From Octopus vulgaris (lineage: Eukaryota): a DNA stretch of 64,000 bases. The notes beneath the pieces were generated by a model. It saw only the letters and a list, made by a program, of their open reading frames with translations, had not been told where the DNA came from and did no database searches. Made by a program: the position numbers and the translations under genes. The stretch is taken from the NCBI GenBank assembly GCA_951406725.2, contig OX597825.1, positions 71,610,001 to 71,674,000 of the forward strand, read 5' to 3'. Each line of letters opens with the position of its first letter. The first letter of the stretch is position 1. Below are positions 59,090 to 64,000 of this stretch, one piece after another.

Positions 59090-59364
59090 GGTACTACTTA
59101 AGAAGAGTGGTCCCGGTGCGCGCACTCGCGTACTCGCGCATCCGCGCTAGCTAGTCGTGACTAGTCGATCCTTACTTTGTGTTTTTGTGTTTCATTTACT
59201 TTGTTTTAAAAAAACTATTTACTTTGTGTAAAAAAAATTATTTATTTTGTGTTTTAATTACTTTTGCTAGGCAGTCGTTGTAGGATCAATTAGTCACGAC
59301 TAGCTAGCGCGGATGCGCGAGTACGCGAGTGCACGCACCGGGACCACTCTTCTTAAGTAGTACC
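59090..59364. mobile_element. MITE with ~80-bp TIRs and 8-bp TSD (Merlin-like)
   Basis: TIR ggtactacttaagaagagtggtcccggtgcg... is mirrored at 59282-59364. TSD agatgctg at 59082-59089 and 59365-59372. Truncated copy at about 52248-52350. Confidence 0.85.
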
Positions 59365-59540: not shown

Positions 59541-59654
59541 GGTAAAGAATACGTACACCACCCGTTTTCAGCATAACAAAAACCCTAACCCTAACCCAAA
59601 CCCAAACCCTAAAACCTAACCCTAACTCCAAACACCGGGTGTGCGTATTCTTTA
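59541..59654. mobile_element. Tiny MITE-like element with internal telomere-like repeats
   Basis: taaagaatacgtacacc / ggtgtgcgtattcttta inverted ends around degenerate (CCCTAA)n. Confidence 0.55.
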
Positions 59655-60747
59655 GGTAGAACGATACAGTTCTTCAACATAAACAGGGCTCGATAATAAT
59701 TAATTAGGTGCAACATGTGCGCAGTCTTTATTGGGTTCTGGGCATAAAAGGACAAATTCCTTTTTTGCGTCGGTAGCTGTTGAAACCGCAGCTAACTTTT
59801 GTCCTTGAAGTGTCATTCTCTTCCATCAAATTGGAATGAAAGCACTGCGCCTCAGGAAAGAACATTATGAGACAGAATGGTTGATCTAACGAATATCATG
59901 AGTGTTTGCTTTTAGTTTCTTTGTTTTTTTTTTCGCTCTGTATAAGTACTGAATAAAAATATTGGAATAAGCTTCATTTCGTAGTTATACACACAGACAG
60001 ACGTACACATACATACACACGAATCAACAAAAACGTCTGTTTGTTCGCATGAACTGTTAGAATTAGCGGGGAAAATGTCTCAAATAATATCTTGAATAAT
60101 ATCTTGGATAATATAAAAAATAACAGAGGATAATATAGTATGTATTAAATATAATGACTGCAAAAAAAGTTGGGGGGTTAGTCATTACTGGAATGTTTTT
60201 GGTCATAAGTCTGCAGTACCTTGAACTAAAGAAGAACAACACACTCACGTGCGTTCATATCAGCATAGAAGTAAGCGTAAATATTATCATGTGTAAGAGA
60301 ACTTTAAATAGTAAAATTAAAGAGTTACAGCTAATGACTCCTTTCCGGTATCTATTCCACCGATGTTGAAATCAGTAATATTAATCCATGGTGTACATTT
60401 AATCAGAACCGATCTTTATCAACAGGGAGTCAAATTCAAAGTAATAGCGTTGAGAGGAAATAAGTTGTTTCAAAAAGAATGACGCTAAACAAACGCGATA
60501 TTGCCAACTGTCTGACATTTTCATGAAGGATGGATATTAAAATGAACATAATAGATAAGAATCCCGCTTTTTGAAGATATATAAAATCAGTAAGATTTTT
60601 GGTTTTCATTTCTCGTGTGCTTATTTGCATAATTCGGTATATATACAATTATATATTTCTTCATGTTATATTTTTCTATATTCCTCTGTCTCGCTCATCC
60701 AATCAAATATTGTTGACGATTTAAATTTCATTAATTATGGTGGAATT

Positions 60748-63144
60748 ATGAAGCTACAGACATTGCTAAGCACATATGTTTTAACCGTCCTTCTACAACA
60801 TTCAGACGAAGAACAACTAAGTTCAGATTCCGATACGTATCTGACCGTACAACTTCTGATAGACCTGGAAAGTCCCGAACAGCAGAAATTGGATCGCTTT
60901 TTTAACATTGAAACCATGATTGATTTATCGACCAAGAAATTTTATTTTTTCGAAGATTCAGTAACTCTGCGCCTTTACGTTCCCAGCTCAAAGATCGGTT
61001 ATCCCATTCAATTTTTGCAATTTGTCAACAATCGCCCATACGAAATAGTTTTCAACGAAACCTGTACTAAAAATGGAAATATGGACTATTTCTGCCAGCA
61101 GACTAATTCAGACAGCAATTCGTACAAGGTCAAAGGGTACTGTTGTCCTGAAAGTGTTCAGATTCGTTGTATTTTCTATGATCCTTTATGGTATTCTATT
61201 AATACGCTCGACGACCCTGTAATCATTCAGGGTATAAAAATGGAGGTCTTCACAAAGGAAGCAGGCGGCGAATCAGATGTTCTAAAGAAAAAAATCGCCG
61301 AAAGCAATCGTTTTCTTGTCAACGGCAAAACTATCGAGAAGGAAGACGATAAACTTTATTTCACGGCCCGCGTTCATAATCTGGCTAACACTACTTCTTC
61401 TGCTTGTAAAAACCCATTTTGTCCAAAGTTAAATTATTTATTGGTACCTCTTTCAAGAATGCCATCAAACGTCAGTCTACAGATATTGGAAGGTGTTCGT
61501 GAATACTTGCTTATTAAGAAGAAAGATTTTGATATAAAAGGAATAGTGTGCGCTACAACTGGAATATCTATCGGTTCTGTTACAAGAAAGAGCGACAGAT
61601 GTTCAGACACCTTTGTAAAAGATTGCTCCAAAACTCAGTATGACAAAAATGAGGAGATAAAAATCAGCGGTGGCAATATAAAGAAATCAAAATATTTTCT
61701 ATCGAGGTTTGCCTTACCTGTAGCCCCTTATATTGGGAAAATTCCTGGCTGGAAATCTAGTACGACATTGTTATTTGTAGCTAATCCAAAGCGTTCAGAT
61801 AAAGCGAAGCTGGAAATTATTATAAATCTCAATAAAAACCTTTTTCCTTTTGCAATTCCATTAATAGGTAAAGGTTCTATCAGAACTATATACAGCCATC
61901 CATTTACAAATTATGACACCCAGTATGAGATTGGAGTAAGTATTCTTAACATAGGGCTAGTTACAGGAAGCTTTAAAATATCATTAAACTGTGAACCGAA
62001 AAATCAGTTCAAGACTTTAATATTGATGCCATTTCAAGGACAAATAGTGAGATTTTATCAGAATATTGAATTAACTATTGAAAAAGAAAGCGCGAACACT
62101 ACCTCTAAAAACACCAATAAAAAACTGTTACCATCGCTGTGTCGAATAGAATTGTTGAATGAAGATGAGAAAACAACGCAATCAAAAGAAATTATTTTAG
62201 AAGAAAGTAAAATATGCATATGTTTAGTCGGTTGTAAATGTATTTGTGATCAACCATATACATGCGAAATGATAGACAAGAGAACCACCACTGAATCTCC
62301 TGTCAAAGACTTTCCTCATGAGAAACTCTGGGTTATTGTGTGCACAATTTTATTTCTACTTATGCTACTCAATTTACTAAAATTCTCTTTTGGCTTTTGC
62401 TTCCCAATTCCCGTTGGCGAAGCAGGGCTATGTGTTTTTATAACAAGTAGCTTTCAGTGTGAATATCTCGAAAAAGATCTTCAGCAAAAAGCAGTAGAGT
62501 ACGATGAAGACGGTTACCCAGTGCATCCGAAAACTAAAGAAAGAGTGCGTGCTTTGCAGTACAAGACAATGGGTGCTCTGAATTTATTATTCTTCTTTTA
62601 CTTGCCATTTATTGTCTTTCATTGGTTTTTAGCACGAAACAAGATAAATAAAAAGAAAAAGGATATAACGTGGGACAAGTTAGAAACAACTGTTGAAATG
62701 GTCAAAGAAGGCGATGACAACTTTTGTTTGCACCGTGCTTTGAAAAGAGCATCATGTCAAACAATATCATCAGATCAGTCCGAATTGCCAGACCCCGTCC
62801 AAGAAGAAAGGAATTCTATATTAGAGGAATATGGTAGAAGAATATATAAAGGGAAATGTGGTGAGGAGTCAGTGAAACACCCGTGCGAAAAGTCTCCGAA
62901 ATTATCTAAGGATTGCCAACGAAAGAGTAAATTGAAATGTGTGTTTAATAATTTTCGAAAAACAGAGAAAGAACCTAGTTCATGTGAAAGTTCAGACTGT
63001 CAGAAAAGTATTACGGATAATCTTTCAGCATGTATCATACCTGATATTACCCAAACTATTCGCGACGGTCACGAGAGTAGTTCATCTGAGCCTTCTTCAT
63101 GTTCATCATTCAAGAGAACTCCTAAAAAAGATAAATGTTCTTGA
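60748..63144 (+). CDS. HAP2: HAP2/GCS1-like class II fusogen (fusexin) homologue, single exon, 798 aa
   Basis: Uninterrupted ORF; the first in-frame ATG (60748) is followed by a signal-peptide-like stretch MKLQTLLSTYVLTVLLQHS. Family motifs occur in canonical order: YPIQFLQFVNNRPYE (cf. YPLxYxxxxNxKPxE), GYCC, CIFYDPLWY (cf. HCLxFDxLWY), LLIKKKDFDIKGIVCATTGIS..RC..DC..Q (cf. LDGxECNKIGVS..C..SCLxNQ), domain III NIGLVTGSFKISLNC and CRIELLN, Cys cluster CICLVGCKCIC, TM segment, Cys/Ser/Lys-rich tail. Identified by motif recall, not by database search. Confidence 0.85.
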   Translation: MKLQTLLSTYVLTVLLQHSDEEQLSSDSDTYLTVQLLIDLESPEQQKLDRFFNIETMIDLSTKKFYFFEDSVTLRLYVPSSKIGYPIQFLQFVNNRPYEIVFNETCTKNGNMDYFCQQTNSDSNSYKVKGYCCPESVQIRCIFYDPLWYSINTLDDPVIIQGIKMEVFTKEAGGESDVLKKKIAESNRFLVNGKTIEKEDDKLYFTARVHNLANTTSSACKNPFCPKLNYLLVPLSRMPSNVSLQILEGVREYLLIKKKDFDIKGIVCATTGISIGSVTRKSDRCSDTFVKDCSKTQYDKNEEIKISGGNIKKSKYFLSRFALPVAPYIGKIPGWKSSTTLLFVANPKRSDKAKLEIIINLNKNLFPFAIPLIGKGSIRTIYSHPFTNYDTQYEIGVSILNIGLVTGSFKISLNCEPKNQFKTLILMPFQGQIVRFYQNIELTIEKESANTTSKNTNKKLLPSLCRIELLNEDEKTTQSKEIILEESKICICLVGCKCICDQPYTCEMIDKRTTTESPVKDFPHEKLWVIVCTILFLLMLLNLLKFSFGFCFPIPVGEAGLCVFITSSFQCEYLEKDLQQKAVEYDEDGYPVHPKTKERVRALQYKTMGALNLLFFFYLPFIVFHWFLARNKINKKKKDITWDKLETTVEMVKEGDDNFCLHRALKRASCQTISSDQSELPDPVQEERNSILEEYGRRIYKGKCGEESVKHPCEKSPKLSKDCQRKSKLKCVFNNFRKTEKEPSSCESSDCQKSITDNLSACIIPDITQTIRDGHESSSSEPSSCSSFKRTPKKDKCS

Positions 63145-63146
63145 AT

Positions 63147-63760
63147 TTCATTGGCAGAATTTGTGAAACAGTTTAATATAAAAGTTGCCATTAAAAATAT
63201 TTGTAAATCTTGGGGGAAAGTGACAAACTGCAACATATTTTACCATTGTTCATTGGTAGAATTTGTGAACCTGTTTAATATATTTTTAAAAAAACGCCAT
63301 TTAAAATATTCTTGAATCGTGGGGAAATGTGAAAACCAACATATTTGATTTCAGTGTGCTTAATATTTCAATGACACACTAACAGAGGAATTTTTTTGAA
63401 GAAATACTTAACATTGGAATAGAGCTTGGTTTCGTAAAAATAGACGATATAGATGTTCACGATTTATTTGAATCCTATTCGAAAGGACTAACTCTCAGGA
63501 CATTCTTAATGTAGATCAACAAGCGGGTATACAAAGAAGACGAAGCTGAGTCGATGAAATGTACCACAAATTAAAGGAGTGACTGTAAAATAATTTTATG
63601 TTATGTTTCTCGAATACGAAATTTAAACTATTTGTGATGAATATCGATCCTAACGAACTTCATAACTATAGACAGTTACAGGCAAAGGCAACGAAAGAAG
63701 AATATATTAATGCGTATCAAATTACCATGGTTAAGTATTTTTATTTTTTCAAAGGAAAAA
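63147..63760 (+). mobile_element. Ancient pogo/Tigger-like transposase remnant directly after the HAP2 stop, with an internal ~100-bp tandem duplication
   Basis: LAEFVKQFNIKVAIKNICKSWGKV (repeated as LVEFVNLFNI..NILESWGNV) and ELGFVKIDDIDVHDLFESYSKGLT resemble the Tigger segments TLRDFWKRYNI and ELEMDSEEEDFTDLFEKDKQSLT seen at 29.7-30.4 kb. Confidence 0.6.
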
Positions 63761-64000
63761 ATTCGTGAAAAGATTATTTTCCGACGTTTTTAGGTAGACT
63801 GCAGTAAAACAATGTTGCATTTCCAATAAATTGTTGAATACTAAGCACATTTTTACCTGTCCTTATTACATTTTCTTCTTTAAGGATAAAACATAAATGA
63901 TAAAATAGTGACCAAGTGTTTTCACACATATACACACGTGCACACTCATACATACATGTATATAGTACATTTAAAAGTAGACAAGGAATACAATAAATAA

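Follow-up and report, generated by a model that had tools for sequence, protein, structure and literature searches.

Structures of HAP2 (GCS1) have been solved for Chlamydomonas (5MF1, 6DBS, 6E18), Arabidopsis (5OW3), Cyanidioschyzon (7S0K) and Trypanosoma (5OW4). In the Chlamydomonas protein the loop cysteines C167 and C190 pair with each other. The cd loop is hydrophobic in all solved HAP2s (PMC8777248) and is held by an Arg-Glu bridge. Nine residues of the tip, among them those of the Arg-Glu salt bridge, are invariant across 38 HAP2s (Fedry 2018; PMC6089408). In Chlamydomonas, the substitution R185A/Q or loss of TRA abolishes both fusion and liposome binding, and F376 and Q379 of the ij loop are the cage residues (PMC5332557). 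In Arabidopsis, fusion is abolished by R163A or by deletion of the fusion helix; in a Tetrahymena Arg mutant, mating persists (PMC6089408).

EFF-1 and AFF-1 of C. elegans have no true fusion loop and work from both membranes; in mammalian cells, bilateral action is also possible for Arabidopsis HAP2 (PMC8777248). The archaeal Fsx1, which is HAP2-like and also bilateral, has a fusion loop, requires it, and carries an additional domain IV (PMC9259645). Dictyostelium has two HAP2 homologues, HgrA and HgrB, present in both membranes (PMC8784728). In animals, Hydra HAP2 is restricted to spermatogenic cells, and the HAP2 genes of sponges and cnidarians contain introns (PMC2766252).

Molluscan HAP2 is already known from databases, which hold the proteins of the bivalves Pecten maximus (XP_033735139.1, named as such) and Solemya velum (KAL5009314.1, unnamed) along with those of two nemerteans, Lineus and Tubulanus. 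Thus the finding of HAP2 in a mollusc is in itself unsurprising. Here we describe two tandem HAP2-derived genes of an octopus, copies A and B, in which the cd loop is absent.

Gene structure and transcription

Copy A occupies 60748..63144 on the plus strand (ATG at 60748, stop codon ending at 63144) and encodes 798 amino acids. It is the sole frame of more than 210 codons within the 64-kb stretch of DNA analysed here (the window), and at 36% GC the random occurrence of a frame of this length has a probability of about 1e-25. The frame is seen in the list of open reading frames, in the Pfam profile match and in a contig of a relative that crosses it without a joint.

The coding region (all features on the plus strand) starts with a weak candidate signal peptide at approximately residues 1-20 (60748..60810). 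Domains I and II of the class II fold, approximately residues 26-370 (60823..61857), are supported by the profile, the alignments and the predicted fold. They are followed by an Ig-like domain III and the beginning of a Cys-rich stem, approximately residues 371-500 (61858..62247). The predicted membrane region (62323..62631; hydropathy and model) consists of a helix at 526-544, a hydrophobic segment at 548-566 and a second hydrophobic helix at 610-628. The basic, Cys-rich tail occupies 62632..63141.

The initial annotation of this locus had listed a signal peptide, a Cys-patterned ectodomain, a TM region and a tail in a 798-codon open frame. The frame, the ectodomain and the tail, which is Cys-rich with a basic start, are present, and hydropathy and the model support an anchor and a tail. 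The signal peptide is less clear, as the N-terminal hydrophobic stretch is of moderate strength (best 11-residue mean 2.17 by hydropathy). The hydrophobic segment at 526-544 is present, but there are three such segments, not one. Although HAP2 is described as single-pass, conservation of the second and third segments, which follow the main helix, extends to other bilaterian HAP2s.

The likely transcript covers 60108..63844 on the plus strand, as judged from contigs of relatives, with a 5' leader of about 640 nt, the open frame and a 3' trailer of about 700 nt. The stretch or a part of it is contained in 18 of the 24 sequencing runs listed, none of which is recorded as RNA; contigs of four runs were aligned, and the RNA status of X5 and X6 is a guess. 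In X5 a single contig of 3,762 nt (record 15, 92% identical) spans 60108-63844 without a joint, and there is no depth upstream of about 60100. The X6 contigs, which come from another study, span 61312-63844 and thus share the end at 63844. A poly(A) signal AATAAA (63825..63830, plus strand) lies 14 nt before this common end. All six gap letters of X6 over 61312-63268 form two in-frame triplets. Such a joint-free contig and a shared end behind AATAAA fit a single-exon mRNA in two related organisms, and expression of the gene is likely. In view of the introns of the sponge and cnidarian genes, the line leading to copy A has lost introns. Low-depth contigs with a patchy match, as expected of copy B, occur in X5, X6 and X18.

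The region upstream of copy A contains an inverted repeat at 59090-59364 (83-nt arms, 96% complementary, 109 nt apart) that looks like a small non-autonomous transposon, and a short run of degenerate, telomere-like CCCTAA repeats at 59580-59631. A FAR-17a/AIG1-like gene in one open frame (L011:3866-4594, minus strand) lies about 70 kb downstream.

Relationship to known HAP2 proteins

The gene is a HAP2/GCS1 descendant, as the initial annotation had proposed, and this is confirmed by profile, tree and predicted fold. Copy A matches the Pfam profile PF10699 (HAP2-GCS1) with 78.4 bits (E 5.7e-22) at a curated cut-off of 27.4; the scores of copy B, the protein P0003 and Solemya HAP2 are 86.3, 95.6 and 256.9 bits, respectively. 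In a Pfam scan up to E 1 this is the only family matched by copy A, with no match to PF14884 (EFF-1/AFF-1). Among 1.84 billion cluster representatives there are 20 matches: a partial model of copy A itself, P0003 (31% identity), which is likely a distant cephalopod protein, and then proteins of bivalves, nemerteans, arthropods and dinoflagellates, many of them bearing the name 'hapless 2'. The partial model, which is the public database entry for copy A, has 561 amino acids and begins at Met238; it does not include the tip, and thus the loss described below was hidden.

In a tree of 22 rows, copies A and B and P0003 form a clade with support 100/100, and this clade groups with the two bivalves with support 95/99. 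The mollusc grouping retains support 96 in a tree of 15 rows from which the loop region was excluded. No branch is longer than the stem of the loop-less clade, at 2.21 changes per column (loop excluded), and both sets of rows are without gastropods and Nautilus. The placement among molluscan HAP2s indicates that copy A is a vertically inherited, fast-evolving molluscan HAP2. The bivalve and nemertean orthologues have an identical domain order and the same three hydrophobic segments; identity of the Solemya protein to copy A is 23% over 742 columns.

The AlphaFold2 model of copy A (mean pLDDT 66, pTM 0.45) has a class II fold with domains I-III. Solved HAP2 chains occupy ranks 1-8 in Foldseek and 1-6 in VIA when compared with this model. 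The model was built from a HAP2 alignment, and the fold match is thus not independent of the sequence match. The class II fold is also shared with Fsx1 (Foldseek E 2.7e-12), which like copy A has several membrane segments, and with EFF-1/AFF-1 (E 2.6e-10), a separate family by Pfam.

Loss of the cd fusion loop

The tip of copy A has collapsed (C132-C141, 61141..61170, plus strand; alignments and model). Only 7 residues separate C133 from C141 in copies A and B and in P0003, versus 30-142 in all 19 other HAP2s compared, the lengths being rough in six of them, all insects, as the upstream CC is unaligned there; P0002, a fragment of copy A, was excluded. In the solved Chlamydomonas HAP2 the matching cysteines are 44 residues apart, and the gap is seen against this protein as well. 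Bivalve and nemertean HAP2s have a cd loop of 33-38 residues, the Arg, both Cys and the ij-loop Gln, whereas copy A has none of these. The model joins strand c (130-133) to strand d (138-144) through a turn of four residues (pLDDT 75).

In the insect models P0007, P0011, P0016, P0017, P0019 and P0021 the CC pair and the surrounding strand b-c region are unaligned, and the Arg motif is kept in five of the six; this may be real divergence or gene-model error.

Other residues of the tip have changed together with the loop. A clear Arg...Cys motif is present in 18 of the 19 loop-bearing HAP2s, and all 19 have the Phe and Gln of the ij loop. In copy A the invariant Arg and two invariant cysteines are gone along with the cd loop. 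The ij loop (C268-C293, 61549..61626, plus strand) retains its cysteines, but the cage Phe is replaced by Val278 and the Gln by Lys281. The Gln is also replaced in copy B (Lys) and P0003 (Asn), and the Phe is Val in copy B. The conserved strand-b Glu, E99 (61042..61044, plus strand), which by alignment corresponds to Chlamydomonas E126, is still there without its Arg partner. Six of the nine invariant tip residues are kept in copies A and B, which miss the Arg and the two Cys, and five in P0003, where the Glu is absent too.

The gap does not stem from misalignment. A profile-profile alignment places it at the identical position, the two loop cysteines have disappeared as a pair, and the Gln that helps to keep the Arg in place is replaced, which argues for a tidy, co-ordinated loss. 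Since the cd loop, the Arg, the two Cys and the cage Gln are missing from two tandem copies and from a relative with 31% identity, the loss is old.

The initial annotation had also reported HAP2 motifs in the correct order and called the fusogen intact. The order is correct; however, the fusion-loop motif between these motifs is missing, so that "intact" applies to the reading frame and not to the fusion machinery, and the loop and Arg required for fusion in Chlamydomonas and Arabidopsis are absent. By its sequence, copy A is HAP2 by descent and would not be filed as a canonical HAP2 fusogen.

The second copy and selection

An exon-wise search of the genome (2.8 Gb, 227 contigs) found at least two PF10699 matches. 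Copy B, 52-57% identical to copy A, starts 18,230 bp downstream of it, beyond the window (G000:C12:71688978-71711598, covered by L004-L008). Most of its 22.6-kb coding span is a Ser/Arg-rich tandem repeat with units of 153 and 51 nt (51 and 17 amino acids). The first frame has 2,752 codons, and the stop is reached 22.6 kb past the ATG after five frame switches in the tail; one of these coincides with a C9 run, and three others with shortened GA runs. The switches may be assembly errors or true slippage; in the former case copy B would have approximately 7,500 residues. Of the 75 repeat spacings, 70 are multiples of three. Single-exon structure and long Ser/Arg repeat tails are common in testis genes.

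Behind the repeat, the C-terminus of copy B is formed by a domain of about 105 amino acids (L008:1266-1595), which it shares with P0003, both bivalves and both nemerteans. This domain occurs once in the genome, is missing from copy A, scores in no arthropod HAP2 examined, and has neither a Pfam match nor a convincing Atlas match. Its presence in copy B only indicates that copy B is the full-length orthologue and copy A a shortened duplicate. Copy A has also evolved about three times faster (branch lengths 0.58 versus 0.20 in the 22-row tree).

Selection on the gene is purifying but weak. The dN/dS ratio between the copies is 0.62 (95% CI 0.51-0.76; simple Nei-Gojobori counts), which supports the earlier claim of a selected gene. 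It is 0.68 for the ectodomain and 0.42 for the stem and membrane region, the best conserved part. Both ectodomains are still open at a dS of about 0.5-0.6.

The 5' leader and first codons of copy A (60270..60858, plus strand) are 94.7% identical to copy B over 589 nt. This exceeds what a dS of about 0.58 elsewhere permits, and the leader has thus likely undergone gene conversion. Of the 29 differences from X5 listed in the comparison, 13 are sites where A equals B. The near-identity of the leaders suggests shared expression of the two genes rather than expression in opposite gametes. As in Dictyostelium, there are two HAP2 homologues in one genome, but here they arose by tandem duplication and their 5' ends have been homogenised.

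Possible functions

The reading that we prefer, with a probability of about 0.4, is that this HAP2 descendant serves as a non-inserting docking or scaffold protein of gametes, fusion having probably been handed over to other machinery. Without the cd loop the protein has likely lost the ability to insert into the membrane of the partner, and it would act at the gamete surface rather than fuse gametes by itself. The model predicts a class II rod in which a short turn closes off strands c and d. The fast-evolving ectodomain may bind an egg or sperm protein, and expression in sperm would be expected by analogy with Hydra and other HAP2s. A fast ectodomain with a better-kept membrane region is a pattern known for gamete recognition proteins.

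Lipid merging would then likely be done by other proteins of this genome, for instance those of the DCST1/2 type. There are two DC-STAMP-domain genes, each in one open frame, encoding 758 amino acids (L021:2087-4363, C18) and 682 amino acids (L022:1983-4031, C12). Both are intact and have C-terminal Cys clusters; we take them to be DCST1/2-like by domain and length, not by a tree. Coding introns seem to be absent from them, as from the HAP2 copies. According to a proposal in a 2026 preprint, HAP2 was supplemented by DCST-based fusion or gave way to it (PMC13192892). In the same source, loop-bearing HAP2 and DCST1/2 coexist in some invertebrates, and thus the presence of DCST is not specific.

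Docking is favoured because one-sided, virus-like attack needs an inserting tip and none of the known kind is present here; the fast ectodomain with a kept anchor, the DC-STAMP-domain genes and the DCST proposal point the same way. On the other hand, the class II architecture, the stem and the membrane region are completely retained, beyond what docking would obviously need. Moreover, EFF-1 and AFF-1 fuse cells without a fusion loop, so a protein that has lost its loop may still be able to fuse membranes.

Next in order, though doubtful, is a loop-less two-sided fusogen converging on EFF-1/AFF-1, with copies on both gametes zippering into trimers across the gap and drawing the membranes together without insertion. 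Each copy could pair with itself, or A could pair with B. Domains I-III, the stem cysteines and the membrane region are there for this, two copies are available, and bilateral action has the precedents of EFF-1/AFF-1, Arabidopsis HAP2 and Dictyostelium. However, the bilateral Fsx1 needs its loop, the near-identical leaders suggest shared expression instead of opposite gametes, and the residual cd turn, with net charge 0, -1 and -1 in the loop-less proteins, is not acidic, unlike the cd loop of EFF-1. It is similarly unlikely that cephalopod HAP2 became such a fusogen as an independent, EFF-1-like invention, with fertilisation in the octopus relying on a partnership of the short copy and the copy whose tail runs to several thousand residues.

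A one-sided sperm fusogen with a rebuilt tip, in which the bc connection would combine with the short cd turn in a manner comparable to the several small loops of Trypanosoma HAP2, is also unlikely and takes third place. HAP2 tips are highly variable, and there are orthologues in which variable region 1 of the bc connection may touch the membrane (PMC6089408). The bc connection of copy A has seven large hydrophobic residues, and the new Lys281 of the ij loop could conceivably pair with the retained E99, although the model was not the source of this pairing. However, with 30-33 residues and 6-7 large hydrophobics the bc connection is neither longer nor more hydrophobic than in loop-bearing HAP2s (27-52 residues, 3-11 hydrophobics). 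A, B and P0003 show no conservation of these hydrophobics, and P0003 has lost the Glu.

It is improbable that the locus is a slowly decaying relic on which selection relaxed once other proteins had taken over fusion, copy A being a fast-evolving truncated duplicate and copy B carrying a broken runaway repeat. The dN/dS of 0.62-0.68, the long branch of copy A, its missing C-terminal domain and the five frame switches of copy B would be explained, but the confidence interval excludes 1, the ectodomains have stayed open, the X6 gaps and most repeat spacings preserve the frame, copy B ends in an intact conserved domain, and the loop was lost before the split from the distant P0003. Least probable of all is somatic co-option for cell adhesion or syncytium formation instead of fertilisation, for which a contig of word depth 1819 in one run could be cited (word depth being a poor measure of level), against the sperm-restricted expression in Hydra and the testis-type single-exon structure and Ser/Arg tail.

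Neither a HAP2 without the cd loop and Arg nor any cephalopod HAP2 was found in the open literature searched, subscription papers being outside its scope; this literature included PMC7688107, PMC6826153, PMC8784728 and PMC13218726, and no mollusc term occurs in the examined supplements of PMC6089408. Figure 4 and the supplements of the preprint PMC13192892 may list a cephalopod HAP2.

All solved HAP2s have a hydrophobic cd loop held by the Arg-Glu bridge, and here both have been removed and the gene kept. If the protein is active in fusion, HAP2 can fuse without inserting. If it is inactive, it would be a naturally occurring intermediate of the shift from HAP2 to DCST-based fertilisation that has been proposed for animals. 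The loop-bearing HAP2 of bivalves is an available control in either case, and copies A and B are concrete candidates for sperm-egg interaction in cephalopods.
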